From positions 197,639 to 261,638 of the forward strand of contig JAAOMT010000289.1 in assembly GCA_016748015.1 (NCBI GenBank): a stretch of 64,000 bases of DNA, read 5' to 3'. The notes below the pieces were generated by a model, which did no database searches, was not told where the DNA came from, and saw nothing but the letters and a program-made list of their open reading frames with translations. Position 1 is the first letter of the stretch. Each line of letters opens with the position of its first letter. The position numbers were made by a program, and so were the translations under genes. This DNA is from Geosiphon pyriformis uo1. Taxonomy: Eukaryota; Fungi; Glomeromycota. Shown here in pieces: positions 1,108 to 50,625 of the stretch.

Positions 1108-1895
1108 TATTATAGGTGATTATTTGGGGTCTTAAATCAAATAACAAATCCATAACTTGATGCTCAAAAGCTATTCGCAATGATGGTAATCTGAAGGTAT
1201 TGTTATCTAAAGGTTTTGGTTGAGTTTTTTGTATAATAGACAGAGATTTAATAGTTGTTTATCTATAGCTTCTCAAAATCGCAATTCTGTCAATTTCTTT
1301 TTTCAGCTTGATGGCTGGTACTCTTCTAGTAAGTAATTTGTAATTTCTTTATGTGTTCTACTCACTCGCAAGGATCTTTTATCAAGCAATCCTTGACATC
1401 AATAATTTAGAACTTAATTTCTAATCAATTAGTAAACAACAAAAAGAAAATACAAGAAATAAAGAAAAGATAGGAAAATAAGCCAAGGCAATAAATTTTA
1501 GTATCCCATCAATAGCTGTAATCAAGAGCTATTGTTTCAGTATGGTTAAGTATCAATCACAATCAACATAAAGTATTGATAGTGGAGAGTGGATTGGAGA
1601 TAGTAAATAATTATTTATTTAATATTTGTGGTGTAAAAAGTTGCTTAAATCAAATCTAAACTGAGAAGTCTCCCTTTTTCTACTTCTAATGCTATTGATA
1701 TATATACATAATTGAGATTCCTTAATTCTTTGATTCTTCACACCAGGAATCCTGCAATTCCTTGTATGAGAATCCTGAAATTTCTGGAATTCTGGAATTC
1801 TTTTGAGAGAAATCTTAGAATTCCATATTTACTATGGCTACTTCTGATTGGCTAATTTATATGCTAATATACTTCCTATATTCTATGAGTTAATA
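1108..1895 (-). repeat. 3' LTR of element B
   Basis: Aligns end to end with 22192-22905 and 17685-18532; adjacent PPT (minus strand aaagaggagggaataa). Confidence 0.92.
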
Positions 1896-1915
1896 TTATT
1901 CCCTCCTCTTTAATA

Positions 1916-2541
1916 TTAAGTTCTGTTAAGATCTCCTAATTTTAATTCTCTGTCTTTAAGTATTTTTTGAACTTTTTTTTCAAGAATTACTTGTGCTATT
2001 TTGTTCTGTAATTCTTCAAATTGAGAGCATTGATTATTTTTCCCATTTGGTTAATAGTAATGTAGTTTATTTCTGGATTGGGTAAAATTTCTGGTCGATC
2101 TTGAAATTTGGTATGTAGTCAATAAATAGCTTTTGCTTGTGTGATCAAATTGTTTTTTCCCACAAATTGTTCCAGTTGTTGTAGTATTGTTGTGTCAAAT
2201 AATCATTTTGTTTTATCTGTATACAAGCCCTGAATGTTCAAGTGTTGTCCCAAATAAAAGTAATAAAAGTTTTTTGGAAATTGTTGTATCTACTAATTCC
2301 AAGTTTCTATTGTCAATTCTTGATATTGAATGATCTTTAGTTGTGTTTCTATTGCCAATTTCATTTTTGTGATTATTTTGTTCACAGTGTTTTCTGTTTT
2401 TCTCCATATTTTATCTTATGGTCTTTTTTTGGTGTTTGTGTATCTAATAATTTGTTGATTGATTGTAATTTCCATCTCTTGTTATTGAATTAGTTGAAAA
2501 AGTTGTTGTGCTAGTGAGTGAATACCGTCAGTAATCTCCAT
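1916..2541 (-). pseudogene. Element B extra ORF3 (unknown soluble protein, env position)
   Basis: Reconstructed frame MEITDGIHSLAQQLF...GQHLNIQGLYTDKTK*LFD...AKAIY*LH...ITINQMGK...FEELQNKIAQVILEKKV...NRT*, ending just before the PPT; homologous to 15155-15770. Confidence 0.75.
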
Positions 2542-5543: not shown

Positions 5544-6420
5544 TGTTACTTATAAAAAAAAACAGATATAGAAAAATAGTAGACCAATAAGAGAGTAGTA
5601 GTTAGCATGTAAGCACATTGCTCAGCAATGTGGAGCAAAATCAGAAATTATGACATATCAATTAGCAATGTGGAACAATGTCAAGAAAATATGGCACATT
5701 TTTTAACAATGTGAGCATTGCTTGAGAAATTATAGCACATCACTTGAGAATGTAAGCAATCTTGTAAAACCCAAATTATGTATATATAGTGATAATATTA
5801 GAAGTAAAAAAAAGAGACCTCTTAGTTTAGATTTCATCTAAGCAACCTTCCAATTCATGAATATCAATAAATAATTATTTTTTATCTCAAATCCACTCTT
5901 CACTATCAACACTTTATGTTAATAGTAATTGATACTTAACCATGCTGAAACAATAGCTCTTGATTATGGCTATTAATGGGATACTAACTTGCAATTGCTT
6001 TTGTTTATTTTATTTTATTTTATTTTATTTTCTTCTATTTCTTTGTTTTACTAATTGATTGAGGATTAAGCACTGAGTTATTGACATCAAGAATAGTCTG
6101 GTAAAAGACCCCAAAGGAAGAGTATAGAATTTATATATATATACAGATAGCTTACCAGAAGGGCATCTCTGCCAGATTACCAGCCACCATGCTGAGAAAA
6201 AAATTTGATGAAATTGCAATTCCGGAAGGCTACTAGAAAGACAACAATTAAATCTCTGTCCATTATACAAAAAACTCAATAACAAAATCTTCAGATAAAC
6301 TACACCGTCAAATAATAATAAATGTATCAATATTACCAATATCATCTACCAAATTAGTCACTGAATACCAAGTTATGGATTTGTTATTTGATTTAAGACC
6401 CCAAATAATTACCTGTAATA
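5544..6420 (+). repeat. 5' LTR of element C, with U3 array of palindromic CACATTGCTCAGCAATGTG-type units (~5605-5765)
   Basis: Direct repeat of 15791-16658; TATA-like tatgtatatatag at ~5777. Confidence 0.93.
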
Positions 6421-6422
6421 TT

Positions 6423-6439
6423 TGGTGCTCTCTGTAAGG
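6423..6439 (+). promoter_or_regulatory. Primer-binding site (consensus TGGTGCTCCCTGTGAGG)
   Basis: TGG starts 2 nt after the LTR end. The same sequence occurs at 22173-22189 (-), 51157-51173 and 60095-60111, and is complementary to a tRNA 3' end ...CCUCACAGGGAGCACCA. Confidence 0.85.
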
Positions 6440-6449
6440 TATAATCCTA

Positions 6450-9400
6450 CAGAGAATCAACACCAACAACAATCATCTAAAAGTGGCAGAATCAGAAAAC
6501 ATAGGAGCAAACCATTTAGGATTTACTAAATCTTTGTTTTAACAGTACGGCCAACAATTAGGACTAAACAATAACCACTTTCCAGCAGAATCCACCTTTA
6601 ATTTTTACATCAATGATAAAATTACAGACTGTTTAGGAGGAACAGTTAACATTGAATCTGCAAGAAAAAATTTCTATACAGAATTATTTCATCATACCAG
6701 CTTACCAAAAAACTACAGTTTCATACCAATTATTAGGAAAATCAATCAAACCATTAAAAAATATACACAACAACAATTTCCCATTACCTATGTAGACAAA
6801 GGCAAAAGAAGGTTGTGAACACCAGCAGTAACACCAAAACAAATACAACTACCTACTTAGAAGAAAACCAGAGTTGAATCACCAACCAATCCATTATACT
6901 ATTATATACCAGAAAGTGCCATCAACATCTCATCAACAGGTGTGTCCACATCACACATGGCATTAACATTTGGCCAACTCCTATTTCAAAATAAACAAAA
7001 AAAAGCAGAGTTATTAGAAACTTATGGCGACTACTTTGAGGGATTTAAATCACAATCCCCAATGCCATCAGGATTCCGATTACCATCACCTTAACCAAAT
7101 TTTGGAAATGCAAATCTCTAAAAGATAACAGAATCAGAAGAAGAAGAAAAAAAAGAAGCAGAAAATCAAGAATTTACTTACCAGAACCCAATTCTAGAGA
7201 ACCCAAATATTAAAACCCCAAACTTTTAGACTCAACAAGATCCAAAGTTAGAAAATCCAGAAATTGAAACTCCAAACTTTCAAACTCCTCAAAATTTGAA
7301 CAATACAAACTCCGAAACAATTAATCAGCAAAACTTACTCCCAGTAATCATCATTGATCAACCACCAATTGTACCAATATTAAGACCAATTCCACAGCTG
7401 CCTCTTCAGCAACCTATTCAACCACTGCTTCAACAACTCCAACAGCTGTTTCAACACAACAACAACTGCAACTACCACAACAACAACAACAACAACTGAA
7501 CTTAGATCCAATGGCCTACACTTTAATAGTGAAACTAGAGAAGTTTACAAGTAAAGAAAACGACACTCAAATATGGCTCAACAATGTTGAAAAGGCCATC
7601 ATGGCCAATGGATAGAATGATGTGAGAGTCCTCCAAGCCATCTCTTATTTTCTCCAAGATACTACCAATTCATGATATCAAAGCCTAGCCAACAAACTCC
7701 AAAATTTCAATGCATTCAAGCTTACATTTCTATAATACTTTAGTAATAATAATAGCATTAATCAATTGGCAAACACTTTTACCACTATTAAGCAAGAAGA
7801 AAATGAAGCAGTCACTACATACTTAGGATGCTTTCACAAAAATCTGTACCAAATACAAGCAATCCAAGCTGATTATTTCACAGCACCACAAATTCTAAAT
7901 TAGTTCATCAGAGGTCTGCACAGTAGCATCCTCCAATACATATGTCCAATGCACCCAGTAGACCTTCAAGCCATAGTTACTAATGCCAGAAATTTTGAAG
8001 CAGCCAAACTTGAAGCTAACTATGCCCAAGCTGTAAATCTATTAATGAATGGATCATCTAAATTGGATTCCAAATTGAAACAATTTAGTGATTCCATTAA
8101 CTAGAAGCTTGAAGGATACTTAGCTGACAATTGCGCAATTTATCAACCACTTTAACAACGTAATAATTTAAGAATCACAAATCACTCACAAAATCAGTTA
8201 CATTCCTCATCATTATTCAATCAGCCATGGCAGCAAGAAATACATATCTGTCACTACTGTGGTAAACAAGGACATTTGAGAATCAATTGTCAGTCAAGAA
8301 TAGAAAACCAATGATTGGAAAATCAATATCAAAACTCTGATTGCTGGTGTTATCAGACAAAATTAGAGATATTATTTAGCATGAAATTATCTTTATAATT
8401 TCTATTATTAATTAGCATATATTATTGTTTCAAATTATCATTTATTATATTAGCAAAATGTCCGAAATTATCATTTAATTAATAACCTAATTTGTACATA
8501 ACACAAATGTAACTTAATTGCAATGATCAATCATGCAATACTCCAAACTATGTAACATTCAAAAAGTTCACTGAAATTTGTAGAAATTTGCCAAAATAAT
8601 TGATAGTTCACCAAAATATCTAATAGTTCACAGAAATAACTTGTAGTTTGCTGAAATGTATCTTTAATTCAGCAAAATTGTAGAAAATAGCAAAGTTCAA
8701 ATTCATAAAATAGTGTTATGACAAGTTGTATAAAAGAAGAGCTTCTCTTTTCAAGAAAAGGTATCTTACTTCAGATTTAACAATTAGAATCATTCTTTAC
8801 ACACAAAGACAAAATAAAAATATCAAATAATTTGAAAAGCCAAATTCTTAGTTATTCTCTTGAAATTAACTAATTTCTACTAACAGTTTGAAATTAACTA
8901 GCTACCAATTTTAGTAAACTGTTAAAATACGTTCAGGCCTAGATCCGAAACGACTTCCATAAATCAGTTTTTACTTTTTTTTTACATTTCTTTTATTTTC
9001 TTTCTTTTCTCATTATAAATCAATTGGGTAGCCTACAGACGAGAATTCCTGTAAAAGAGTTGACTTTTATAGTAAAGTAACTACACATTTTAGTAAGCTT
9101 TTAGATGAGCATTTTCTGGAAAAGAGTTGACATTTACTACAATGTAACTACATAAAATAACTGGTAAGGAATTGGCCATTCTACTTATAAGCCCAGCAGT
9201 TCAAATTATAGGAGATAATTTGAAGATAAATTCAGTTATTGGAGGTTCAAACACTTCCCATAGTCATGAATTAACAGCATTACAACAAACATATAAGAGC
9301 TAAGAAGAGACCAAAAACTTCCAGTAATACTGGTTTCCAACTCCGAGTTACCAATCCAATCCAGCATCATATCAACCAACTTACTGCCAATGATGCAACA

Positions 9401-9800
9401 ACCAATATATCAACTATTTGTATATCAATTTCCAGTTTATCAACCATAGACACTGATAATATATCAACTACTGCAGTCACAAATAATTTATCAGACACCC
9501 ACAGTTCAAACACTGCTATCAAATCCAGCTCAAATAACATCAAAAAACCCTATATTGAGAGTCATCCAAAACTGGAGATTGGCAATAGTTGTTCACCAAC
9601 CAATTCCCAGTTTATCCAACCAGAGTTCAGGAACCAAATATACTCAAAACCTGAGTTTCCAGAACTATTTAAGTCTCCTGGTTACTCCAGAAGATGCCCA
9701 ACCCAATAATTTGGAAACCAATTAACAAACAACACTTACCAGCAACATTCCACCAGCTATCATCACCAAGAACAAATTACTGGATGCTATTTTTCCATTT
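6450..9800 (+). pseudogene. gag: Element C leader ORF plus Gag (capsid start MAYTLIVKLEKF at 7511; CCHC knuckle CHYCGKQGHLRINC at ~8248-8290)
   Basis: Retrotransposon capsid pattern KLEKF...WLN.VEKAI.ANG*ND...AI.YFLQD...S*YQSL and a zinc knuckle; interrupted by solo LTR 8348-9329. Confidence 0.85.
8348..9329 (+). mobile_element. Solo LTR D1 (family with no internal body in this window)
   Basis: TGTTAT...GTAATA ends; 4-bp TSD CTGG (8344-8347/9330-9333); near-identical to 58502-59462. Confidence 0.9.
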
Positions 9801-9821
9801 GAACTCGAAGAACTGTTAGCC

Positions 9822-10260
9822 ATGTCATTATTTAGTGGAGCTGCTCTTGAAGAAAAACTCATTACCACCATATACACTGATACCAAAGTTGATGGCCACT
9901 CAATCAAACTAATCTTAGACAGTGGATTAGCCGGCAGCATCATCACAAGACAACTCATAGACCAATTAGGTCACCGAATTAATCGAGCTGTCAGTGCCAG
10001 AATTATAACAGCCGATGGAGTGACCAAAACTTTAATTAGTGAGATTAACAATCCACCCATTGAAATTAACAGCATCATAGTACCTATCAAAGTTCTAGTA
10101 ATGGAAGCAACACAGTACTAAGCACTAGTTAGTAACAACTGACTAGTCAAAACAAACACCATACTAGACTGAAACATGCAGGAGCTTCAACTTAGCCAGA
10201 ATGGTCAACACACCTGCATACCAGTCACATGTGGTTATTTCAAAACTACCAACATGCCAA
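9822..10260 (+). pseudogene. Element C aspartic protease
   Basis: IKLILDSGLAGSII (DSG at 9918-9926), flap IITADG, and ALV.NNWL region. Confidence 0.9.
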
Positions 10261-10569
10261 CACCACTCATCAAGTTCAAGGAAGAAGAAAATAAACCTAC
10301 CTGCGAAGTGTACCAAGTCTCATGGGCTGACAAAGACCACAATGAATTATCACTAGTACTCTCATCGGACAACAATGGGAAAGGAAAGAAAAAAGAAAAA
10401 TTTATCTGAAATTCCAACCAAGCCTGGAGAACCAATGACAACCAAGAAGAGCTAATAAATTGAGAATGGGAAGAAAAGACAAAAGAAAAAGGAAAAGAGA
10501 AGGTAGAAAGATCAATATTCATCAGCACCACCACTTATAATTCCTATACTATACTACAGCAATCTGCTT

Positions 10570-11380
10570 ATTGCTGTCCAAAACTGATATGTGTTGATTG
10601 CAGCAAGAAATTGTCATCAATAGATGCTTACTGTGGCAATGATAAGAAATACCAGATGGCAACCAAGTTCTACTGTCGCTTATGTGTTATAAAACATTTC
10701 AAAAGACCAAAATGAGTAGAAAAATGAGATAATAAGCTGTGCTTGGCTTGTGAGGAAACTTTCCTTGACAAAAAAATATGGAATGACATTCCTGGGAGGG
10801 GGAGAACATGCAACAAATCATGTTAATACATGAGTCTCATAAGTGACTGGATAAGAAAAAAAACACCTATAGACACTACCTGGAGACATGCAGTCAAACA
10901 ATTGGATGAATGTCCACACAATAACAACAAAATCTGGCAAATGGCACTTGCCAAAATTGAAGGAGCATCACCAGAAGAAATAAAAACAATTAAAAATAAT
11001 CCATCTGAATTCATAAAACTTAACTGGGACCCAGAACCAATCATAAATCTACTAGATCCAGAACAATTCTATGAACACTATCAGGAATTAGCACCCACTA
11101 GAGAGAAACAAGAGCAACAGTTGAAAAAAATCAACACTCAATTATATGACTATTGTTTAATTTTCTGTGACTTTCAATATTGTAATGAGTGTGACCTCAT
11201 TTACAATCCACCACCATGCATGATTTATATAATCCCAGAAGAAGATAAACTAATAAGCAGCTGTGTATCAGAATCGAAATCAATTTTTAATCTTGATTCA
11301 AACTCTGACAACAATGATAATGAGAATAATAGTTCTAGCTCCATTCAAAATAGCAACAAAAAAATCAATGATTCAGACTT
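10570..11380 (+). pseudogene. Element C Cys-rich/zinc-finger-like pol insert with acidic N/D/S linker
   Basis: CVDC..., YCRLC, CLACE, CNKSC, a helical segment, then (C)DYCLIFCDFQYCNECD; conserved in B, H and K. Confidence 0.75.
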
Positions 11381-11439
11381 TGATCAAACCCCGAAATATA
11401 CATTGCACTTCTTGATCTCTCCAAAAAGCAGGAACTTAA

Positions 11440-11873
11440 ATGATATAGTGACAATAATGAGGGTATTATGCCAGAACACATGCATAATACTGATGCAGAG
11501 TTTGATCTGAGATATTTAGAGAAGAATGCTATCATATTGGAACCACATTTTCACATCTGTATTAATCTTAAGATAGCACTGAAAATTTTAGCAACAACAA
11601 TGATTTAGTTAGCATTTAGGAATAGCTTAGTGAAAAAGGGAATCAACATCAGAGGAGGAATAATTAACACAGGATATGTAGAAAATATCATTATTATGCT
11701 ACAAAATAATTCAAAAAAGACATATATTATAGAGCCAAATAAAAAAATAGCACAGGCAATATTTCTATCTCTGGTGAAAATAGCTCAGTTAGTGTTAATG
11801 GGAAGCAGGGAAGAACTAGAAATCACAGCTAGAGGGATACAGAGATTTAGTTCAACAGGTAGAATAAATATAC
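11440..11873 (+). pseudogene. dut: Element C dUTPase domain between protease and RT
   Basis: All five trimeric dUTPase motifs recognisable across C and B: D(A/T)(G/E)FDL, (S/F)RNSL, GGII(D/N)T(G/E)YVENI, KKIAQAIF, RGIQ(G/R)F(G/S)S. Confidence 0.92.
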
Positions 11874-12399
11874 CAGTTAATATGGTGGAAAAAAAAGTTA
11901 TTGACAAAGGAGAAATTATCTCAACCTGTCAATTAATTTCCATTCTATTATATGACTAGTATATGTTAGCCATAAAAAAAGAAGTAAAGAATCAAGTTCA
12001 GTTGTTTGAAGCAGAAGCCATCATTTGTGAATCAGAAAAGATTGGACTCACTAATCTTTACATATCAGCCAAAAACCCCAAAAATATCAAAATTCCCATC
12101 CATAACACAACTGAAAATGTTATTAAGATACCAAAAAGAACCACTATTGAATACTTAACTACTGAAGTTGAGGATCAACTACCAAACTACATTCCAGATT
12201 TTCCACAGCTTTGTGGATATGTGGATATCACATCACAAATCATTTATGAATAAAGCAAATGTTATCTGCTCCAACTGAAACAATTGGAACAGATAAATTT
12301 GGGAAATTTAGACCCACTTTAATGGATGCAACTCAAGATATTACTCAACAATTTCAACAACATTTTTGCCAGTAAAAATGAATTTGGCAGAACTAACAT

Positions 12400-13690
12400 A
12401 ATCCAGCACTAGATCAAAACTGGAGATGCAATGCCAATAAAACAAAAAGCATATAAAGTACCATCAGCCAGCCATGAAATCATTCATCAAAAAATTAACC
12501 GAATGCTTGACAATAGGCTAATTCAGCCATTAATGAGTCCATGGTCATCACTAGTAGTACTAGTCCAAAAGAAAAATGGAAAAATCCGTTTTTGTGTAAA
12601 TTATCAAAAACTGAATGGAGTAACTAAAGATGATAGTTATCCAACTCCAAAAATCCAAGAACTATTTAACGTTTTTGGAGGAAATAAATAGTTCTTAACA
12701 TTAGATTTAGATAGTGATTACTGGCAAGTAGCCATGAATCCAGCTGACAAAAAAAAAACAGCATTTACTACAAGAGAGGGAAATTTTGAGTTTGAAGTCA
12801 TGCCATTTGGCTTAATGAATGTTCCAGCAACATTCCAATGGCTCATAAAAATTGTCTATACTAAATTATTATGAAAATCAGTAGTTGTATACTTGGATGA
12901 CACCAATATGTTCTCAAAAACATTTGACGATCATCTGCATCATTTTCAACAAGTATTTGAAAGATTAAGAAGAGCTGGATTGAAACTAAATGCAACCAAA
13001 TATTTCTTTGGAAAAACTGAACTCAAGTTTTTGGGACATATTGTAAGCAAAGATGGAATCAAAACGGATCCAAACAAGATTAAAGTTGTCAAAAACTTTC
13101 CAGTACCAAACAATTTCACAGAACTAAGAGCATTCTTGGAATTTGCAGGGTACTATTGCCACTTTATCAAGAACTTTTCTAAACTGGTCCAGCCACTCCA
13201 TCATTTACAAACTAAGAATGTGAAGTATGAATGAACAGAAGCTCAACAAAAAGCATTTGACACACTAAGAAGAAGACTTATTCAAGCTCTGGTGTTGATG
13301 TATCTAGATCACAGTAAACCATTTATTATTACTACTAATGCATTGAGTCAAGCATTAAAAGCAGTACTATCACAAAAAAGACCAGATGAAAGAGAACATC
13401 CAGTAGCATATGTCAGCCAAAGCTTGAGTCCAGCTGAAAAAAACTATGGAACACCAGCATTAGAACACTTAGCAATTTATTGGGCAGTCATAAAATGAAA
13501 AAAATACTTGAGCCAAAAGTTTGAAATATATACGAATCACAAAGAATTGACTTCAATCCAGAAAAATTTGAAAACAATTGCCATGCCAGATAGAAAATAG
13601 AACTTTTACCATTTAATTATACAGTACATTATAAAAAGAGAAAAGACAATGAAAATATTGATGGATTGTTACAAATGAGACAAATCTAAA
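12400..13690 (+). pseudogene. Element C reverse transcriptase and RNase H
   Basis: SPWSSLVVLVQKKNGKIRFCVNY, VMPFGL, YLDD (12890-12901), FLGHIV; RNase H FIITTNA, AEKNY, LEHLAIYWAV. Confidence 0.95.
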
Positions 13691-13719
13691 ACATTTCAAC
13701 CCAAAAATATAACAAAAGA

Positions 13720-15100
13720 TAAATATCCAAAAATACCAACAACTACAACATTATATAAATACCCAATTGTTCAAGGAAAAATTATCTCAAAAGAAACAAA
13801 AAAACATAAAACAACAATCAAAATATTTTATCAACCATCAAAATATACTTTACTAAAAGAACAGAAGAAATTCAAAGCAACTAACCAGAGTAATCACAGA
13901 ACCAGAGAAAGAAACAATATTATTCAACATGCACTCAGATCCAACAGCAAAACACTTTCACAAAGAAGCAACCATGGAAAGAACCAGAAAAAGATATTAT
14001 TGGCCATCAATATATCCAGACATCATTCAATATGTTTAAAATTGTGATGCTTGTTAGAGAAGAAGTGGAACAAAACCCAGTAAACCATTAAGACCAATCA
14101 AAATAGGACAACTATTTGATTGCATTGGAATTGACTTAGTCGGACCATTAACAATCACCAGTAGAAGCAACAAATATATTACAGTAGCCATGGACTATCT
14201 CACTAAATGGCCAGAAGCAAAAGCCATTCAAAGAACAGATGCAGAATTTGTTGCCGAATTCATTTATCAAGATTTGATTTGTCAACATAAATGTTCAAAA
14301 AAACTACTATCAGATCAAAGAACCTACTTTGTGAACAGAACATTAACAGAATTAAGTCAAAAATTTGAAATTAAAAGACCATTATCATTACCATATCATC
14401 CACAAATGAATGGCTTAGTTGAAAGATTTAATAGAATACTGTGTAAAGCAATAGCCAAAATTAGCCAAAAAACCAGGATAAATGGAATTTGTTTATACCA
14501 TCAGTATTATTTGCTTATTAGACAATAAAGCAAGATACCACACAAGCAACACTATTTGAATTAGTATACAGTAGAACAGCAACATTACCAGTTGAGATAA
14601 AAGTCAAAACATATCCAACAAAACCAATAACAGAAAATAATTTCTAAGAAACATTGTTAAGAAGAACATATGACTTAATGGAAACACTAGAAAACAGATG
14701 ATAAAAAGCAGTTGATAACATTCAAAAGTTACAAGAAAAGCAAAAAGAATAACATGATAATCAACTACCAGATAAACCAGTTGAATTTAAGATTGGAGAC
14801 AAAGTACTATTACATTATACCAAAGCAGAAAAACAATGAAGTAGAAAATTTGACCCCAAATGGAACAGACCATTTCACATAGAAGAAATTCTAGGAAATA
14901 GAGCTTATAAATTAAGATGAGACAACAAAATCTTAGCCAAAGCAACACATAATGATCGACTGAAATCATATCATGAGATAGCATCATCATTTACCAATAA
15001 TATTTCACAACTGGGAGTACAAAGAATACTAGTTTAACCAGATAAGATTTCATGAGATTTAGAACCAATCATAGTTATTAAATCAAACATGTCAAATTGA
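13720..15100 (+). pseudogene. Element C integrase (HHCC, DDE, GPY/F; no chromodomain)
   Basis: MHSDPTAKHF...YYWP...CDAC, IGIDLVGPL, DYLTKWPEA, LSDQRTYF, NGLVERFN, PFHIEEIL. Confidence 0.93.
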
Positions 15101-15154
15101 ACAACCAAAAAGTATATAAAAACACAGTACACATGACAAAAGCAGCCAAAAAAA

Positions 15155-15770
15155 ATGGAAATACCAGATCATATTCACACTATAGCTCAACAATTGTTCC
15201 AGGCCTTAAGTCAACAACAGTTAGACATGGAAATTGTTATTAACAACCAAATAATTTGCTATCAAGACAAAAAATACACCATATTAGCGGCTGTCAAAGA
15301 ATGATAAAAACTGGACAGATAACTTAATAAAAAAAGTGAAAAACACTTTTGGGAAAATACCTATTTTGGCAGCAACAGAAGAGCTTACAAAAGAAAATTG
15401 AAAGCAATGGACAGAACAACTTTTAATATCATATTGCTACTACCAGTTAGGTCAAAAGTTGAATATTTAAGAGTTGTATATCGACAAATCCAAGAGAATA
15501 TTCAACCAAGACATAATACAACAAATTGAAGAATTTATTGGAAAGAAGACAAATTCAACACTACATGTTAAAACCATGTACTGACTACACAACATATTTC
15601 GGAACTATTCAGAAATACTGTTATACTTTGACATGAAAACCATAACTATTAACCAATGGGGAAAAATGAACAATACACAAGTAAAAGACATAAAAAACAG
15701 AGTCGAACAAACAATACTTGAAAAAAAAGTATTAGAATTAATTCAAAATGAAGATTTTGATGGAACTTAA
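15155..15770 (+). pseudogene. Element C extra ORF3 (unknown soluble protein, env position)
   Basis: MEIPDHIHTIAQQLFQAL...YCYYQLGQKLNI*ELYIDKSKRIFNQDIIQQIEEFIGKK...KTMY*LHNIF...ITINQWGKMNNTQVKDIKNRVEQTILEKKVLELIQNEDFDGT*; the stop abuts the PPT. Confidence 0.78.
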
Positions 15771-15790
15771 TATTAAAAAAGAGGAAATAA

Positions 15791-16658
15791 TATTACTTAT
15801 AAAAAGAAAACAGATATAGAAAAATAGTAGACCAATAAGAAAGTAGTAGTTAGCATGTGAACACATTACTCAGCAATATAGAACAAGGTCAGAAATCATG
15901 GCACATCACTCAGCAATGTAGAGCAATGTCAAAAAAATATGACACATTGCTCAGCAACATGAGCATTGCTTGAAAAATTATAACACATCACTCGAGAATG
16001 TGAGCAATCTCATAGAACCCAAATTATGTATATATAGTGATAGCATTAGAAGTAGAAAAAAGAGATCTCTCAGTTTAGATTTTATCTAAGCAACCTTCCA
16101 ATTCACAAATATCAATAAATAATTATTCTTTATTTTAAATTCACTCTCCACTATCAACACTTTATGTTGATAGTAATTGATACTTAACCATACTGGAACA
16201 ATAGCTTTTGATTACAGCTATTGACGGAATACTAACTTGCAATTACTTTTGTTTATTTTCTTTTATTTTCTTCTATTTCTTTGTTTTACTAATTAATTGA
16301 AAATTAAGCACTAAGTTATTAATATCAAAAATAGCCTGATAAAAGACCCCAAAGAAAAGATATAGGATTTATATATATTAATGGATAGCTTACCAAAAAG
16401 GCATCTCTGCCAGATTACTGGCCACCACGCTGAGAAAAAAATTCAATGGAATTGTGATTCTAAGAGGCTACTGGAAAAACAACAATTGAATCTCTGTCCA
16501 TTATACAAAGAACTCAACAACAAAACCTTCAGATAAATCACACTGTCAAATAATAACAAACATACTAACATTACCAATACCATCTACCAGATTAGTCACT
16601 GAACACCAAGTTATGGATTTGTTATTTGATTTGAAACTCCAAATAATCACCTGTAACA
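15791..16658 (+). repeat. 3' LTR of element C
   Basis: Direct repeat of 5544-6420, preceded by the PPT and followed by TSD GTGG. Confidence 0.93.
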
Positions 16659-16944
16659 GTGGTTAAGTAACCAATAGTAGTTCCTTCCAGTATTTTAATG
16701 ATATTTTCTGTGTTGTTATAAATGGAAATTTTGATGTGTTTGTGGTTCCTGGCTGGTATGTGTAGATTGACTAATCCAATATTTTCTGATTTACAAAGTG
16801 TTGCTTCTGTCTCAAAAATCTAAACCTGATTCTTTACTTTTCTCTCTATGGTTACTATGTATTAGTCATATGGTAGAATAGAAATTAATTGATGGGTGGA
16901 GATAATTTCTCCCTTGTTAATAATCTCTTCTTCTGCCATATTGA

Positions 16945-17390
16945 CTGGTACATTTATTCTATCTATTGATCCAAATCCCTGTATCCCTCTAACTGTAATT
17001 CCTAATTTTTTTCTGTTTCCTACTAACATTAACTGAACTATTTTCATCAAAGGTAAGAATATTGCCTGTGCTATCTTTTTGTTTGGCTCTATAATATAGG
17101 TCTTTTCAGAGTTATTTTGTAGCATTGCAATAATGTTTTCTACATATTCTGTATCAATTATTCCTCCTTTGATGTTGATTTCTTTTTTTGCTAAACTATT
17201 CCTAGATGCTAGTTAAACCATTGTTGTTGCTGGAATTTTTAGTGCTATTTTAAGATTAATACAGGTGTGTGAATGTGGTTCCAATTTGATGGCATTTTTT
17301 TCTGGATATCTTAGATCAAACCCTGTATCGATATCATGCACATATTTTGGCATAATGCTTTCATCATTGTTGCTAAACCATTTTAATTCC
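16945..17390 (-). pseudogene. dut: Element B dUTPase
   Basis: ORFs 17213-17665 (DTGFDLRYP) and 16862-17125 (KKIAQAIFLP, RGIQGFGS). Confidence 0.92.
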
Positions 17391-17684
17391 TGCTCCTTAG
17401 AGAGATCAGGAAGTGTGATGTATTGTTTGGGATTTAAATTGGAGTTTGAATTATTGTAATTTTTGTTGCCATTTTGAATAGAGCTGGAATCATTATTTTT
17501 GTTGTCATCATTGTCAGAGTTTGAATTAGACTTGAACAGTGATTCTGATTCCAATTCACAGCTGCTAATTGGTTTTTTTTCCTCTGGGATCATGTAGATC
17601 ATGTATGGTGGTAGATTGTAAATAAGGTTACACTTATTACAATATTGGAAGTTACATAGGATCAAACAATGATCACATAGTCGC

Positions 17685-18532
17685 TGTTACAAGTGATTAT
17701 TTGGGGTCTCAAAGCAAATAACAAATCTGTAACTTGGTGCTCAATTGATATAAAGATGTTGATTACTGAAGGTGGTTTGTATCTGAAGGTTTTAGTTAAG
17801 TTCTTTGTATAATGGACAGAGATTTAATAGTTGTTTTCAATAGCCTTTTAGAATTGCAATTCCATCAATTTTTTTCTCAGCTTGGTGGCTGGCAATCCTC
17901 TGGTAAATAATTTGTAATTTTTGTATGTGCTTTACCCACTTACAGGAGTCTTTTACCAGGCAATCTTTGATGTCAATAATTCAGCACTTAATCCTTAATC
18001 AATTTAGTAAACAACAAAAAAAATAACAATAGAAAATAAAAAAAACAAAGAAAATAAAGAAATAAGCCAAGATGATTTTTGCAAGTTAGTATCTCGTCAA
18101 TAGCCATGATTAAAAGCTATTGTTCTAGTGTGGTTAAGTATGAATTACTATCAACACTTCATGTTAATAGTAAAAAGTGAATTGAGATAATGAATAATTA
18201 TTTATTGATATTTGTAATGTGAAAGATTGCTTAGATTAAATCTAAACTGAGAGATCTGTTTTTTCTACTTCTAATATTACTACTATATATATAATTAAGA
18301 TTCCTCAATTCCTCAATTCTTCACACCAGAAATTCTGGAATTCCTGAAATCCTACAATTCCTTTGAGAGGAATTCTGGAATTCTGGAATCCTGCGATTTT
18401 TTGTATGAGAATCCTGGAATTCTGAAATCTTGCAATTCCTCTGATAGAAATTCTGGAATTCCACATTTACTACAGTTACTTCTGATTGGCTAATTTATAC
18501 TAATATATACTTTCTATATTCTATGAGTAACA
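17685..18532 (-). mobile_element. Solo LTR E (same family as B LTRs) inserted in B's Cys-rich pol insert
   Basis: TGTTAC...GTAACA ends; homologous to 1108-1895 with an expanded GGAATTCC-type array (~18295-18465); degenerate TSD TCGC/TTGG; host frame is continuous across it. Confidence 0.85.
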
Positions 18533-22191: not shown

Positions 22192-22905
22192 TGTTACAGG
22201 TGATTATTTGGGATCTTAAATCAAATAACAAACCTGTAACTTGGTACTTAGAAGCTATTCACAATGATAGTGATCTAAAGATATTATTATTTAAAGGTTT
22301 TGGTTGAGTTCTTTGTATAATGAACAGAGATTTAATAATTGTTTATTTGTAGCTTCCTAGAATCACAATTCTGTCAATTTCTTTCTTTAGCTTAATGGCC
22401 AGTACTTTTTTGGTAAGTAATCTGTAATTTCTTTATGTGCTCTACTCACTCACAAGGGTCTTTTACTAAGCAATTTTTGATGTCAATAATTTAGCACTTA
22501 ATCCCTAATCAATTAATAAACAACAAAAAAAAAATACAAGAAATAAAGAAAAGATAAGAAAATAAGCCAAGGTGATAAATGTTAGTATCTCATCAATAGT
22601 TGTGATCAAGAGCTATTGTTCCAGGGTGGTTAAGTATCAATCACAATCAACATGAAGTATTGATAGTAGAAAGTGGATTGGAGATAGTAAATAATTATTT
22701 ATTTGATATTTGTGGTATAGAAAGTTGCTTAGATCAAATCTAAACTGAGAAGTCTTCTTTTTTTACTTTTAATGCTACTGATATATATACATAATTGAGA
22801 TTTCTCAATTTCTTTGAAAAAAATCCTGGAATTCCACATTTACTATGGCTATTTCTTATTGGCTAATTTATATGCTAATATACTTCCTATATTCTATGAG
22901 TAACA
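22192..22905 (-). repeat. 5' LTR of element B (U3 array contracted relative to 3' LTR)
   Basis: Homologous to 1108-1895; PBS immediately internal. Confidence 0.92.
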
Positions 22906-22909: not shown

Positions 22910-24503
22910 ATATTATCTTATCAAATAGTTTGAAGCTAGAACTATTCAAGTGGCAAATACCAAAATAATAGTCGAATTTGTACATCAAAATTTAATCTGT
23001 TAACATAAATGCTCAAAAAAATTATTATTTAACCAAAGAATTTATTTTGTTAATAGCACATTTGCCAAACTAAGCCAACAATTTAGAATAAAACAATTAT
23101 TATTATTATCATATTACTCTTAAACAAATAAATTGATAAAACAATTTAACCAAATATTATATAAAACATTAGCAAAAATAAGTTATAAAAATACACAATA
23201 ATAAGGCCTATTTATATTTTTAGTATTATTAATATACTAAACATTAAAACAAAATACTATTCAGTTTATACTATTTAAATTAGTCTATAGAAAAAAAACT
23301 ATACTACTTATTAAACAAAAATTACCTATTTTTCTGACTAAAACAATTACCAAAAAAAATTTTGAAGCTATTTTGCATTAAAAAACATATCAATTCATAG
23401 AAACATTGAAAAACAATTATAGAATAGCAGTTAATAATATTAGTAATACTTAAAAATAACAGAAAAAAAAACATAATAATTGCTTATTTAATTAGCCAAT
23501 TAAATTCAAAATTAAAAATCAAGTATTATTATATTGTATTAAAGCTAAAAAACAGTGAAATAAAAAGTTTGACTCAAAATAGGACAGACTATTTTATATA
23601 CACAAAGTTTTAGACAATAAAACTTATAAATTATAATTAAAAAACAGGATTTTAAAAAAAATTGCATATAAAAATTGTCTAAAAATTTATTATACAATAC
23701 AAAAATTATTGTTATTTATATTTCAATTAGAAACACAAATTCCATTAATTAGACCAAAAAATATATCATAAGATTTAGAACCAATTATTATTATTGAACA
23801 CAATTTATATATGACAATTTAAATTACATAAAATAAAGATATAAATACCAAAAAGACAAATATAGATTTCTTAAACAAAATCTTGAAACTTTTACAATTA
23901 TTTAAAACAATTCAACAATCTACAATATTAATAAAAATTACAATTAATAGAAAAAAAAATACAATACAAAAATATAAGCAAGAAAAAAGTTTAACAAAAA
24001 CTAAATGTTCTTATTTTTATAATTAATTAAGAAAAAAAAATATATAATTGCATATATTTGACAAAATTAAGAAAACTTTAAGCAAACTAATTATAAAACT
24101 AATAACAAAAAAATAGACACCAAAAATCTTCAAAAAATAGAAAAAAAGACTTTTACTAATATACTGGTTTTTTAAAATTAGTAAAAAACTAGATCTATAA
24201 ATATTATACTTAGACATTAACAAACAAATATTCAACAAAAAAGCTCTCAAACAAATAGAAAAATTTATTAAAAAAAACAACTTAATACTATACTATAAAA
24301 CAATATATTAATTATATTTAGCATTTAAATATTGTTTAATCATACTATTAAACAATTTATTAAAAGTTATTACAGTTAACAACATAAGATAAATAACAAA
24401 TTCACAATTTGAAAACCTACAAAAAGCAATATTCAATATAATAATTGAACATTATAATAAAAGAACAATTGTTATAGATACATATAATTTTACAGGAACT
24501 TAA
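22910..24503 (+). pseudogene. Element A integrase C-terminal half plus extra ORF3 (~23811-24503)
   Basis: Collinear with 14190-15770 (..DLEPIIII; ..ISKKLDL*ILYLDINKQIFNKKALKQIEKFIKK..; ends NFTGT* before the PPT). Confidence 0.78.
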
Positions 24504-24522: not shown

Positions 24523-26292
24523 TATTATCTAAGTAAAAAAGCCAAATTAAAAAATATTAAAAAATGTGATTAAAATATGATAACATAAAAAAAACATAAT
24601 AATATAAAATAACACATTCTGTGGCTGTCCAAAAGTGCATTTACAATAAATGTTACCCTAGTGTTTTGTGTCTATATTGTGGTAAAGTAGAGGTGTCTGA
24701 TCATGTGTTTTCTTGTGTGGTTGATGATTTAGCTTGCCATCAGATCTTGGAATCTTGCATGTCTTCTTGGAGGGTGCTTTTTGGTCTCTCTCTTCCTTTT
24801 TTGGGTGTATTGCAAATGCTGTTAATCTGTGCTTTAGACTTCCCAGTTTTCTTAGCTCTTTACAAAGGTTTTGTTTTCAATAAATAGCTTCAGGAGACTA
24901 TTTCTGTTTTCCATAATTCCAAAGTTGCTGGTGTTAAAATTGCTGATTTTGTGCACTTTATTTGTCTTGCTTTTAGGAATGATGTTTGGTTGGTCCATGC
25001 TAAGCATTGTGCATTTATGGAAAAGAATAGCCTAATTCCAGTAAATGGCTCGATCTCTGTTTCGGTTTCTGGTTTGGCTTCAGGGTTTTCGGCTGGTGTG
25101 ATTGAATTGTTTGGCATTGTTGAGACTTTTGGTGTCTGTTTTGGTTTTCACAAGTCTTGTTCATTTTTTTCAGGTATTAGTAACCCAGTTTCTGTCAATA
25201 TAAGTGCATAGTGTTGTTCTAATTGGCTTGAGTGGCTGGTTACGTGTAGAAAATGCATGATTCACACTTAGTTTAGATTATTTCCTTGATGTATAGTTCT
25301 AAGTAGTATTTGGACCTCACTCATTAAATAAATAAATAAAAATAAAAAATAACACAAAATAATACATAATAATTTAGAATAATACAAAATAATACACAAT
25401 AATATAAAATAGTACAGAATAACTAATCATAATATAGAATAACTAATTATAATATAAAAAAACAAAGCAACAACAGAAATAATAAGCAATAACTAGTAAT
25501 AATAAATGGTTAAAAGCAATCTTATAAAACTAGAAAATATATATAAAAATAAATAGTTTTAGCAAATAAAAAAAAACAAACAGAAGATAAAAATATATTT
25601 TCTTAAAATATATCTTAGCTTTAAAAACTTAATAAATCTTTTTTATCTTATTTTTTTTATAATCTTATATTTACAATTAAATAAAAATATTATTCAATTT
25701 ACTTGTACATAATTCTTAAATTTGTGTTGTCAAAATTAAATTAATTATTTTTTTTACTTTTGTTCCAGACCAGATGCTCTTAGCATAAACTATTTTAGAA
25801 TTCTAATAACTTAAACTAATTACTTTTGATTATGGCAATTAATAATATTAATTTTTCTTTTTTTTTTTCTTATTTTTCTTTTTTTTCTTTTTTGAATTCT
25901 CTCTTTTTTTGGGTAGAGTAATAATATTAAAAAAATCAACTGTTTGGAAATAAACTTTATAATAGTCTAATAAAAAAACTTTTTATAGATTTGAATATTA
26001 ACTTTATCTTATTAGCTTATTAAAAAAGCAAAAAAACAATATTAAATCTTAATAACTGCATTCAACTAGCTTAAAAAAAATAACTTATATATAATTTAAT
26101 TATAAACAGTTAAATCACATTTCTGTGTCTTATAATTAAAGAACTCTACAATAAATTTACATTTATTGAAAACCTTCAGAAATTGATAACTCTAATTTGC
26201 TGTTTATGCAAACAAAAAAATCTTTAAGCTTATTTACTTAAATATAAAACACCAAATATTACTATTATATCTTATCAAGTTTATCTATAATA
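24523..26292 (+). repeat. 3' LTR of element A (interrupted by LINE fragment); U3 array of ~10-nt ATAACACAAA-like units
   Basis: Follows the PPT and begins TATTA (decayed TGTTA). The end is inferred where the old-LINE reading frame resumes (~26293); boundary approximate. Confidence 0.6.
24617..25340 (+). mobile_element. 5'-truncated LINE 3' end (ORF2 C-terminal CCHC domain, 3' UTR, (TAAA)n tail)
   Basis: ORF 24621-25211 with one in-frame TAG; CLYCGKVEVSDHVFSC zinc finger; tail ~25325-25345; TSD aaaataacaca (24606-24616/25346-25356); higher GC than flanks. Confidence 0.88.
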
Positions 26293-26754: not shown

Positions 26755-29612
26755 CTATACTGCTATTTTACAAGAAAACTTGTACAAAGTAGATATTTTT
26801 TGAACAATATCAAATAAAATAAGATTACTAAAAACCAATTCAATAAGCTATTTGGCCATTTTTATGAAACTAGACTTAACTTTAAGAGATTTAAATTTCC
26901 AAAATGCTATTAATTTACCAAATACTTTATTACTTATTTCAACAAGAACTTTAAAATTACCAGATAAATCAATATTTTCTATATTATATTCTGTTTTTAA
27001 TAATACTATCTTTCTTTTCAACTTACCAATAGTTTTGTTTAAAGCACTTAAATATACTATAAGTTTATTAATCTTGTTTCCAAGCTTGCTGTTTGACATA
27101 AAATTACTCTTGACAAATTGTTCAAATACAATTATCAATACACCAACAGAATTAACAATTAAATTGACCAAAATTAACAATTTAATTAAATTAAATTTCA
27201 GAAATACTAGCCAAAAAAAGACCAAAAAATTAGCAACAGCTACAAAAAAAGAAGCAAGAGCCACTAAAAAAAAAACATAAAGAGATTCAAAAAAACAGAG
27301 ATCTTGGCATAAAACTTAGTACTTACAAAATATGAAACAAATATTTTAGAAATCTTGAAAAAAAAAGGTGAAAAAATCTTATAGTCTACAGTCAGATGAC
27401 CTATTTTTTGACATCTAAAACAGCATTAACAGCCAAGAATTTTTTATCAGATACAATACTTTTTTAGTATACTAGTCTTGAAAATTACAGTATTCAAATC
27501 AATCTAAAATCTAAATATAATCAGAGCAAACCAAAAACAATAACCAGAATTAAGAGAATAAGAAATAAAACATGTCAAATCACTAATCTAAAAAATTATA
27601 TTACTGATTTCAAAAACAGTATAGCCAAAAAAAAGTTGACCAACTTGGCTGTAAATTTATTATAAAACAAAATAATTTTATTTTAATTTACCAAAAAAAA
27701 GATTCCAACACTATTTTTGTTTATCAATATTAACCAATAATTTAAAGCAGATGTAATAGTATTTAGCTTTTTAAAATAAATAACAATATATTATTAAACA
27801 CTAGTAAATTTTAGTATAACATGAACAATTTTATCAAAGATATCAAGTACTGTTTTAATATTAGTAACAAACATATTTAAAGACATATTATGTAAAGCAA
27901 CAATAGCAAAAAACTCAGAAATTACCAAAAATTTGGCAATTTTAAGAGTAGTCAAATAAATAGAACTCATAAACTCAACCAAAAAAACAGCTTCTAAAAA
28001 CTTTTGAAAGGCAAACTCTACACAAAAAAAGCTTTATATTATCTTTTAACACTGATTTTGCATTCAAAAAACCATATACAGACTAAAAAACAGTCTTAAT
28101 ATAAACCAATTTAATCTTGAAAGTAGTAATAAAAACCAAAGTAGAGATTATCTACTTAGTAAACTTTTGATAATTAAAAATAATTTTTTAAGCACTATTA
28201 ATAACATACTAAATAATGCAACAAAAATCTTATTTAAGATCTCATTAAAAACTACAAAAATATTTAGTATAACAATAACAGAAACAAGTAACTGCTCTTA
28301 TTTTTTTGAATTTTTAGTTTTTTTGACTATTTTTTTTTAAGAAACAGTAATAACAGCATTAGATGTAAAAGTTATAGAGAAGAAAATCAGCTTGTTAACT
28401 AATTTGTTATTAAAAATCTTTGGACTCTTAGAAAAAATAGAGACAACACTAAAATTAACCCAAGTGTGTCTCTTTAAAAGAACTTTGACTGGAAAAAAAC
28501 CAGCCAAAGATAAAAAAGATGCTTTAGTAGTCACTGTTACAGATAATTATTTAAAGTGTTGGAATAAATAACAAATCTGTAACTTGGTGCTTAATAGCTG
28601 GTAATGTTAGTAATTTCTGAAGATTTTGGAGTTTAAAGGTTTTGGTTGAGTCTTTTATATAATGAACAGAGTTTTAATTAATGGTTTCTTTTATGAATTT
28701 TTTTCTTCAATATAATGGCCAGTTTATTTTGACAGTCATGTTTTTTTGGTAAGCTATTTTTAAATTTCTACTCTTATTTTCAGGTCTTTTACCAGACTAT
28801 TTTTAATATTAAATACTTAGCACTTAATTTCTTTTAATTAATTAGTAAACAATAAAAAAATAAAAATAAAATAAAAATAAAAAAAAATAAAAAAAATTAA
28901 TAAAAAATTAGTATCCTATTAATAACTGTAATCAAGAGTTATTGGTCTAGTATAATTAAGTCTTAAATTCTATTAACATAGAGTGTTAATAGAGTAGAAA
29001 TAATTAATATTGCTTTAATTAAGTAATGATAATATAGATTCAGGAAATAATTAATATTTTATTAATATGTGATTTAATTCTGTTTTAAGTTGTAGAAAAC
29101 TACCTTTTGAAGAGAGAGGTATTATATATTTAATGGTTTTAACTGATTTGTTTCGATCAATTCTGTTTTTAATACTCTCATTATATATATATATTTTTTA
29201 TTATATAAGATTTCACATTTTTTTGAACAATGTGTCCTATTTTTTCTGATAATATGCTTATTGCTGAGCAATATGTCATGATTTTTTAACAATATGCTTA
29301 TTGCTAAGCAGTGTGTCATAATTTACTAACAATATGTATATTGCTGAGCAATATATCATAATTTTTTAATATTGTGCTCATTTACTAAGTTTTATTTTTC
29401 TATTGGTCTATTTTTTTATTTGTTTTTTTTATTTGTACTTTTTCTATAAGTAACACTACCAAAGACAGTTTTTATTATCAATATTTAAAGAAAAAGCTTT
29501 TAAGATATTTTGTCTGGCAGTTTTTACAACAAAAAATACTTTTTTGGTTAAAACTTTATGAAATACCAAAAAAAATATCAATTATAGCTTTTTTACTTTT
29601 TGCTCTAATTAT
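26755..29612 (-). pseudogene. ORF1p-like protein of the HAL1-like element (RRM-like region, CCHC knuckle, C-terminal coiled coil); split by solo LTR F
   Basis: ORFs 28337-28534, 27794-27982 and 26848-27264; knuckle remnant CFRCQKIGHLTVDY at ~27383-27425. Confidence 0.75.
28535..29455 (-). mobile_element. Solo LTR F (C-type U3, variant R/U5)
   Basis: TGTTAC...GTAACA ends; TTGCTGAGCAA units at ~29255-29390; degenerate TSD TCAC/CTAC. Confidence 0.85.
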
Positions 29613-29647
29613 GATTATAAAATTAAGAAAACAAAAAGAATATATAT

Positions 29648-30472
29648 TGTTACTTATAAAAATAAGAATAATAATAAGTAAAAAAAATAGCCAATCAGAA
29701 AAAAGCATATTAAATAAAAGAATTCTAAAATTTTTTTCAGGAAATTGCAGGATTCCAGAATTTTAAGATTCCTTTTAAAGGAATTGAAAAATTTCAAGAA
29801 ATCTTGTATAATATAAATTATGAATATATAGTGAGAGTATTAGAAGCAAAAAAAGTATTTAATTAATTCAGAATTTAAAATAACAATACTCCTCTTTTCA
29901 AAAAATAGTTTTTTATAACTTGAAATAAAATTATACCAATATTAATAAAATTATTTATTATTATCTAATTTATATTATCATTACTTAATTAAGAAATATT
30001 AATCAATTTTACACTATTAACACTCTATATTAATAAAATTTAATATTTAATTATACTGAACCAATTGCTTTTAATTATGATTATTAACAAAAAAATTTTT
30101 TCTTATTTTCTTTTTTATTTCTTTTATTTTGTTTTATTTTGTTTTATTTTTTTTGTTGTTTACTAATTGATTAAAAAATTAAGTACTAAGTAATTAACAT
30201 CAAAAATAGTTTGGTAAAAAACTTGGGAATAAAAATAGAAAACTTAAGAATAGCTTATCAAAAGAATATAACTGTTAGAATAAATCAGTTATTATACTGA
30301 AAAAAAAAATTCATAAAAAAAACTATCAATTGAATCTTTATCTATTATACAAAAAACTTAACCAAAACTTTTAGACTTCAAAATTTTTAAAAACTACTAT
30401 CATTAATAGCTATTAAACACCAAGTTATGGGTTTGTTATTTGTTTTAGTATTCCAAATAATTACTTGTAACA
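29648..30472 (+). mobile_element. Solo LTR G (B-type U3, variant R/U5)
   Basis: TGTTAC...GTAACA ends; TSD ATAT (29644-29647/30473-30476); gaattgcaggattccagaatt units at ~29720-29800. Confidence 0.87.
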
Positions 30473-36543: not shown

Positions 36544-37445
36544 TATTACAGATACTTATTTGGAGTGCTAATACAAATAACAGATCCATAATTTGATACT
36601 TAATAAGTAATATGATTGAGAGTATCTAAAGATTTTTGGATTGAAGTTTTTTGTATAATGAACAAAAATTTAATGGTTGTTTTCAGTAGTCTCCCAAAAT
36701 ATTGATTTTATCAAATTTCTTTTTTCAACATGATAGTCAGTTTATTCTGACAGTTGTGCTCTTCTGGTAAGCTATCTGTTAAGTTATAACTCTATATCCT
36801 TATTTTTGGGTCTTTTACCAGGCTATTTTTAATGTTAATTAATCAGTGCTTAATCCTTTAAATCAGTTTAATAAACAACAAACAACAAAAAAAAAGAAAG
36901 AAAATAAAAAAAACAAAAGGAAATAAAATAAAATAAAAAATTGGTATTCTATTAATAACTGTAATTAAAAACTATTGTTTTAGTATAGTTAAATATTAGA
37001 TTCTATTAACATAAAGTGTTGATAGAATAGAGATAATTACTATTTTTTAATCAAGTAATAATAACATAAATTTAGATAGTAATTAATAATTTATTAATAT
37101 ATAATATAGATTTTGAATTGGTTCTAACTATTTTTTTAACTGAAAATTCTAGTCAAATGTTCTAACTGTGGATTTTGTCTTTTCTGCTTCTAATATTCTC
37201 ACTATATATACATAATTAATGTTCTATAAGATCTCACATATTCATAAACCATGTGCTATAATTTCTTAAGCAATGTTCATATTGCTAAGTAATGTGTTTT
37301 AATCTACTAATATTGTTCACATTGTTAAGCAATATCCCATAATTTATTAGCAATATGTTTATGTGCTCAATACTATTCTTTTATTGGTCTATTTTTTTAT
37401 TTGTTTTTTCTATTATTTCTCTTGTACTCTTTTTTATAAATAACA
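36544..37445 (-). mobile_element. Solo LTR I (C-type U3) inserted at the start of H integrase
   Basis: TATTAC...TAACA ends; TSD ATAT/ACAT; homologous to C and F LTRs. Confidence 0.85.
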
Positions 37446-38849
37446 ACATAATCTATTCTAAGTAATTACTAAAACTAAGAAAAAAATTATTCTTTACAAC
37501 ATGTACTTAGATTCAAATACAGAACACTTTACAAAAAAAGCTATAATTTAATAAACAATTAGTTAGTATTATTGGCCAAAAATGTACATTAATGTTATTT
37601 AATACATTTATAATTGCAATATATATTAAAAAAAAAAAGAATCAAAAGCAACCAAATTGTTATAACCTATTAAAATAGGAAGACTATTTAACAGAGTAGG
37701 AATTAATCTAATAAAATCATTAACTATTATTACCAAAAAGAACCAATATATTGCAATCACTGTAGACTATTTAACAAAATAGCCAGAAGTAAAGGCCATT
37801 AAAACTGCAGATGCTAAATTAATTGCCAATTTCGTGTATAAAAATTTGATCTGTAAACATAATTGTCCAAAAAAGCTACTCTTAGATCAAAAAACCTACT
37901 TTGTAAACAATTTGCTTGCTAAAATTAGTTAATGCTTTAAGATAAAACAACTTTTTTTATTACCTTATCATCTACAAACAAATAGATTGGTAAAACATTT
38001 TAATAGAATATTATATAAATTACTGACAAAAATAAGCAATAAAATAGAACAAGAATGTGATTTATTTATCTCTTTAGTTTTATTGATTTATCAAATACTA
38101 AAATATGATATTACAAAATTCACACCATTTAAATTAGCATGTAAAAGAAATACTATATTATCTATAAAACTAATAATAAACACCTATCTAACAGAATCTA
38201 TAAATAAGATTAATTTATAAGAAATTATTAAAAGACAGACTTACAAATTGTTAGAAAAACTAAAAAACAATTACTAATATGTAATCAATAATATTGAGTA
38301 CTTTCAAGAACAACAAAAAGTTTAACATAATAGTAAACTCCAAAACAACTTATTGTCTACAAAATAGGAAACAAAGTTTTATTATATTGAATAAAAACAA
38401 AAAAACAATAAAGCAAAAAATTTAACAACAAATAAAATGAACTCTTCTATGTTCATAATATCTTGGATAATAGAGCATAAAAGTTATATTTAAATAATAA
38501 AATTTTGAAAAAAGTTATACACAATAACCAATTAAAAATCTACTATTAACAATAATTATCTGATTTGTTAATACTCAAATTAAAAACACATATATCAATT
38601 GTGTTTTTTAACCAAATTTCATAAGACTTAAAACCAATAGTAATTATTGAACATTATTTAAAAGACAATTAATTTAATCAATTATATTTGAATTATTATC
38701 ATTAATATTTAAAAAATAAAGAATTAAAACAATCTTAAAAATAGTTAAAAAAATCAAAAATATTAAATTATTAAAGAAATCTCTTTAAAATTTTAATATA
38801 TAAAAATAATTTAATTTAGTATTTATTTATTATTTATTTATTTTATTAT

Positions 38850-44200: not shown

Positions 44201-44650
44201 TTTATATTAATTAGTTAAAAAAAAGTATTAAGATTATAACATTAAGAATTTTTTAATAAAAAACACAAAAATAAACATAAAATTAAACTTATTAATAATT
44301 AGATTACTTATTAAAAAAGTAATAAAAATCAAAATAAACTGGTTATTATGTTTAAAAAATAAAATGCCAAATATTATTAATTATTATAACTTAAATTTTT
44401 GTTAATTATACAAAAAACTTAATTTTTAAAATTTTTAAATCTATCAAAATCTTTAAAATTATTTATTAAATTACAATATTAATTTATAACTATTTAATCA
44501 TATAATTATTTATTTATTTATTTTTTATTTTATTAATAAGTACAGCTTAACTACTATTTAGTATACAGAAACAAAGCAAAATACATCAAACTAAATATGG
44601 CTCATGTATTATCTAAATATGACCAGCCACTCAGACCAATCAAGACAATA

Positions 44651-50489: not shown

Positions 50490-50625
50490 GTGATCATTGA
50501 CCTGATCAATGACTTGACCATTGATCTGATTATTGACTTGATTATTGACCTAATCAATGACCTGATCAATAACCTAATCATTAACTTGATTATTGATTTA
50601 GTCATTAACTTGATCATTAATCACT
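50490..50625 (+). repeat. U3 tandem array of 12-nt TTGACCTGATCA-type units (also 57552-57685)
   Basis: About 10-11 degenerate copies with the palindromic core TGATCA in both J LTRs. Confidence 0.88.

Follow-up and report, generated by a model that had tools for sequence, protein, structure and literature searches.

The DNA considered here is a 64,000-nucleotide stretch (the window) of the fungus Geosiphon pyriformis uo1 (contig JAAOMT010000289.1, positions 197,639 to 261,638), composed of nested, decayed long terminal repeat (LTR) elements, several of which carry, between the integrase and the polypurine tract (PPT), an additional open reading frame (ORF) that we call ORF3, followed by the U3 (unique 3') region of the LTR with its repeat arrays. 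A preliminary description made from the sequence had labelled these elements, A, B, C, H, J and K, as proviruses; they are instead Ty3/gypsy LTR retrotransposons of a Geosiphon-type fungus. Their Pfam domains, in the window and in fragments of the metagenome element L001, come in the Ty3/gypsy order (protease, dUTPase, reverse transcriptase (RT), RNase H (RH), and the zinc finger, core and SH3 domains of the integrase), and they have LTRs with TG..CA ends, target duplications (GTGG in C, CTAT in J), a TGGTGCTC primer binding site and a PPT. J is a distant full-length element. The LTR content of the G. pyriformis genome is reported as 41.2% (PMC11952901). The coordinates of the features are collected in the table below.

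In A, B, C and H, a frame of about 205-230 codons lies between the integrase and the PPT, and the mutual homology of these frames is seen by tblastn and with a family profile, whose best domain scores are 132, 203, 181 and 63 bits, respectively, against a best of 10.0 in a reversed-sequence control (858 chunks). The preliminary description had attributed such an ORF to every element. This is true for these four, but the J frame reaches at best -0.6 bits, below its shuffled controls (median -0.1), and what K has, at the edge of the window, is a tail of only some 24 codons that scores 14 bits, directly after its pre-dUTPase region. Because the tail is joined straight to that region, K is an internally deleted derivative of the C family; its C-type U3 and C-like tail do agree with C, as was first noted, but it provides no independent test of the ORF3/U3 pairing. 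The J frame, at the env position, is nearly open over 190 codons alongside a 12-bp U3 tandem, and it is possibly a second accessory protein, unrelated to ORF3 or very distant from it. Stops interrupt every ORF3 copy of the window, and those of B and C also carry a frameshift. None of the seven type representatives has a hydrophobic membrane stretch (best 19-residue Kyte-Doolittle mean 0.27-1.29), which bears out the initial view that ORF3 is not Env.

Beyond the window, the named protein matches of ORF3 are all hypothetical proteins of G. pyriformis, with 10 hits of 27 candidates for the C query, 99 of 137 for the B query, and 48 of the 49 hits of a profile query (3270 candidates). A search with all representatives gave 54 hits, and the 10 that were looked up comprise 8 Geosiphon and 2 metagenome proteins. 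The best-match types of the 185 database proteins that we gathered (B 116, A 41, C 17, P0157-type 8, P0158-type 3) mirror the queries used and not copy numbers; the types are mutually 24-40% identical. In L001, the RT-RH, a stop, the integrase and another stop are followed, after 316 bp, by an intact ORF3 of 230 amino acids in a different frame, which extends across the PPT into the LTR. In a second metagenome element, L002, the integrase tail and a stop are followed by an unrelated 137-codon frame (L002:398-811, no Pfam match) and then by ORF3. The presence of an intact and separate ORF3 in metagenome elements means that the gene is old, has been kept open and is able to stand alone. ORF3 keeps its frame intact and a set of residues conserved across lineages in which it is 25-40% identical, its start methionine is retained in 6 of the 7 type representatives as aligned, its intact homologues are acidic, and transversions are lowest at the second codon position in 10/10 ORF3 pairs, with the caveat that the alignment was protein-guided.

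The core of the predicted ORF3 model is all-helical, and the fold predicted for the product is a helical bundle. Foldseek found no match for this model in the viral and PDB libraries, and neither the match to the YhcG N-terminal domain (DUF1016_N) nor that to the ParB/Spo0J DNA-binding domain was significant. The Pfam matches of 22 ORF3 members include no chromodomain, SH3, DUF1985 or DUF287, and no Tas/Bel1-type family; to our knowledge, Pfam includes a Bel family. No published description of ORF3 was found in the literature, supplements being outside the scope of the search. ORF3 represents a genuine and conserved family of soluble accessory proteins, previously undescribed and distinct from Env.

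The U3 motifs greatly exceed chance expectation. Strand matches number 11 (in 7 places) for the C type where 0.01 are expected, 9 where 0.28 are expected for the B type, and 10 where 0.32 are expected for the J type, and all of them lie within LTRs, bar one J-type match at 53235. The B and C arrays sit between a CCAAT box and the TATA box; the C units are palindromes with 9-bp arms and the B units have short arms. We take these units to resemble host bZIP and heat-shock-type words.

The relation between ORF3 and U3 is best seen by comparing B and C. Since nearly all differences between paired LTRs are transitions (104 against 5 transversions in C, 59 against 1 in J), transversions were chosen to measure divergence between families. 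By this measure, B and C differ at 50/1476 sites in RT-RH and 27/1402 in the integrase, but at 123/607 in ORF3, which confirms the earlier remark that their pol is close and their ORF3 distant; further downstream, the counts are 0/22 in the PPT, 49/184 in U3 and 40/585 in R-U5. A two-breakpoint fit places the ends of the divergent block at 15143, 12 bp ahead of the ORF3 methionine, and at 16022, just ahead of the TATA box. The divergence of ORF3 is about twice that of the integrase in the other 9 pairs and ten times in B-C, and B and C are therefore mosaics. A second R-U5 backbone is shared (support 100) by the solo LTRs at 28.5k, 30k and 37k, which carry U3 types C, B and C, respectively, so both types occur on two R-U5 backbones. 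In a public run, which may be the source sample and whose contig depth is no copy number, 9370 contigs were placed on 14900-16100, and in 32 of them a B-type U3 end runs into the common sequence at 16022. The ORF3 and U3 block has thus likely been exchanged between element backbones, and we infer that the exchange took place through template switches made as the RNA was reverse transcribed. A single switch at the integrase end, followed by normal strand transfer, would replace ORF3, PPT and U3 together.

The integrase has an unusual layout. A stop is found 3-5 codons past the RNase H end motif in 5/5 elements, namely C (13591-13593), B, J, H and L001 (772-774), and in L001, B and J a separate start for the integrase lies close by. 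From these stops, the integrase appears to be an ORF of its own in this lineage. On its other side, the integrase of A, B and C continues in frame into ORF3 through a linker of 30-33 codons, which has 1-2 stops whose places differ between copies; a 33-codon linker is open in one of the 185 models (P0076). In each window copy, a stop lies 12-16 codons past the integrase-tail motif, near the L002 integrase end. Integrase and ORF3 may be fused in some families. The preliminary description had named an integrase C-terminal domain as an identity that would contradict its proposal; the in-frame ORF3 of A, B and C touches on this point, and L001 and L002 encode ORF3 separately.

Other observations concern the elements and their setting. 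Both C (11609-11959) and B (16862-17212) have a dUTPase domain between protease and RT, preceded by an unannotated region. Another family is represented by two solo LTRs that have their own U3 repeats (about 20-bp period), one at 8348-9327 in the gag of C and one at 58503-59460 in the K array, and an insertion at 24615-25330, related to a stretch at 44506-44764, splits the start of the A LTR. A hairpin with a 10-bp stem can be found at 16150-16174 and at the matching places of five other LTRs, about 120 nt past the TATA box and on both R-U5 backbones, with folding z scores of -2.7 to -2.9 in 4 of the 6 copies folded; being common to different ORF3 types, it is possibly a polyadenylation or TAR-like signal. 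The GC content of the window is 13-38%, down to 13-18% at 38-44 kb, and its observed/expected CpG ratio is 0.11. The C-to-T and G-to-A decay in the LTR pairs is not confined to CpG, CpA being as frequent as CpG in C. In Rhizophagus, transposable elements are reported to have high CG methylation (10.1101/2021.03.30.436303).

Table. Elements, ORF3 copies, LTRs and U3 arrays in the window
Feature	Position	Strand	Remarks
Element B	1110-22905	-	C and a solo B-type LTR nested inside
B 3' LTR	1110-1900	-	U3 array of GAATTCCAGAATT type
B ORF3 (B type)	1916-2541	-	in frame with B integrase; broken by stops and frameshift
Solo B-type LTR inside B	17684-18532	-	longest B-type array 18331-18461, 39-bp period
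B 5' LTR	22192-22905	-	
Element C	5544-16657	+	inserted in B
C 5' LTR	5544-6418	+	best-kept palindrome at 5614-5632
C integrase with zinc finger, core and SH3, plus 33-codon linker up to ORF3 methionine	13689-15154	+	frame is that of ORF3 start
C ORF3 (C type)	15155-15770	+	stops and one frameshift near 15271-15306; 76% identity to Geosiphon model P0007
C PPT	15771-15792	+	inside divergent block; 0 transversions/22 sites against B
C 3' LTR	15791-16657	+	U3 to ~16025, TATA ~16029-16036, then R-U5; 4-bp target duplication GTGG
C-type U3 array	15861-16012	+	period 40-41 bp, 3.8 copies, palindromic CACATTGC-N3-GCAATGTG units; CCAAT box (15830) on one side, TATA on the other
A ORF3 (A type)	23862-24503	+	frame shared with A integrase; strongly decayed
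A-type array	25326-25442	+	10-bp tandem, not palindromic; moved off LTR start by insertion
Solo LTR, C-type U3	28535-29455	-	second R-U5 backbone
Solo LTR, B-type U3	29645-30472	+	second R-U5 backbone
Solo LTR inside H, C-type U3	36546-37447	-	second R-U5 backbone
H ORF3	38896-39420	+	decay strongest of all copies; U3 array not found
J frame at ORF3 position	56808-57377	+	ORF3 homology not detected
J-type U3 array	57553-57682	+	12-bp tandem; second one at 50491-50618
K 5' U3, C type	58391-58502	+	split by foreign solo LTR 58503-59460
K ORF3 tail, C-like	63928-64000	+	internal deletion joins tail to pre-dUTPase region

How could these features be connected? Our tentative reading, to which we give somewhat less than an even chance, is that ORF3 binds the U3 array of its own family and acts on the promoter of the element, gene and array being exchanged as one block between backbones. 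The helical bundle would contact the repeats, with the L-x-x-x-x-G-K-T-N turn and the helix that follows possibly acting as a helix-turn-helix, and the variable residues right after this conserved turn would give family specificity. The target would be the array between the CCAAT and TATA boxes, and the outcome may be activation, protection from methylation or, where ORF3 is in frame, an integrase held on its own cDNA end. In a bolder and quite unlikely form, which concerns a lineage of Ty3/gypsy elements of early-diverging fungi, the 3' end of the RNA would carry a swappable lock-and-key cassette, made of the element's own sequence-specific DNA-binding protein and its array, and the same domain could tether the integrase to its own cDNA ends. 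Such tethering is conceivable because the conserved stop cuts the integrase off Pol and because ORF3 is in frame in several families, and it can be likened to transposases, which use subterminal repeats; in the literature, no such self-recognition module was found for LTR retrotransposons.

Several points keep the block from proving cognate binding. ORF3, PPT and U3 lie side by side at the 3' end of the genomic RNA, and their co-inheritance is therefore expected without any lock-and-key relation; the co-inherited module of the preliminary description is retained as one sharply bounded block between B and C, whose pairing this contiguity alone could produce. Linked ORF3/U3 pairs in the window are those of B, C and K only. 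Among the 185 database models, 2 contain U3, namely P0105, in which the types agree, and P0149, in which a B-type tail meets a C-type array, such joins being ambiguous where nested insertions are present. The arrays, first presented as palindromic throughout, are so in C and B, but J has a 12-bp tandem containing a 6-bp palindrome, the 10-bp tandem of A is not palindromic, and at the start of the H LTR no array could be found.

ORF3 could also act at the level of the RNA or the particle, in export or packaging as Rev or CERV do, or in bringing the separate integrase into the particle, with U3 arrays that are fast-evolving host-factor enhancers or small-RNA hot spots, linked to it by adjacency only. 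We find this rather unlikely. By itself it leaves unexplained both the persistence of two deep ORF3/U3 types across backbones and the residues that vary behind the conserved turn. In its favor, the block ends coincide with the RNA 3' end and the last high-identity pol stretch, the B and C arrays sit between CCAAT and TATA boxes and their units may resemble host words, the intact ORF3 homologues are acidic, P0149 is discordant, and an integrase cut off by the stop after RNase H may need a helper. Sireviruses are a known case of U3 regions that are palindromic and evolve fast (PMC4728375), and for Cer1 an element protein is described that exports RNA, CERV being the LTR-element export factor (PMC10309623). 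A doubtful alternative makes ORF3 an integrase-associated targeting domain, functionally standing in for the chromodomain of chromoviruses, fused or read through at the C terminus of the integrase in Geosiphon families and separate in others, which would bind chromatin, or else a host protein, where the element inserts. The integrase frame that enters ORF3 in A, B and C, the open linker of P0076, the shifting places of the linker stops and the heavy nesting of the window elements would all suit such a domain, but the integrase ends with a stop apart from ORF3 in L001 and L002, the stop past the integrase tail recurs in every window copy, the start methionine is mostly kept, and Pfam gives neither chromodomain nor SH3 for ORF3. 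Finally, that ORF3 is an env-like or coat-like structural protein, or a non-functional remnant, is very improbable given its lack of a membrane helix, its intact and conserved frames across lineages and the empty Foldseek search.

Extra ORFs between pol and the 3' LTR are common and of a known kind, with functions described as mostly unknown (PMC7264820; PMC5408684). Plant aORF-3S/3R and the bdelloid ORF3 types are likewise conserved at this position in most copies, as reported there. Here, in contrast, the host is a fungus, the ORF is in sense and has no membrane helix, enzyme domain or Pfam match, its divergence is tied to the U3 array, and a stop separates RT-RH from the integrase. The action proposed for ORF3 would be analogous to that of foamy-virus Tas/Bel1, a 3' accessory product that attaches to response elements within the LTR of the virus itself (PMC517496); foamy viruses, however, are retroviruses with env, no sequence match of ORF3 to Tas/Bel1 was found, and its binding is putative. 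The VANC anti-silencing proteins of VANDAL elements, like ORF3, diverge faster than the core enzyme, and they go with family-specific tandem motifs (PMC5735166), to which the U3 arrays may correspond, but VANDALs are DNA transposons, VANC carries DUF1985/DUF287, and its targets are described in introns and upstream regions rather than in U3. The palindrome-rich, fast-evolving U3 of Sireviruses resembles the one seen here, but these are a Copia lineage, and the account in PMC4728375 explains their palindromes by small interfering RNA targeting rather than by an element protein.

With nearly identical pol, one different gene and one different promoter array, B and C amount to a natural swap experiment. 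If cognate binding is true, a retrotransposon would here regulate itself in the manner of Tas or VANC. Such self-regulation could be part of the reason why LTR elements have expanded in this fungus under strong cytosine decay, and the DNA-binding proteins would gain a small family that looks programmable. If the binding is not cognate, there is still an undescribed conserved protein family, together with an unusual split-integrase layout.
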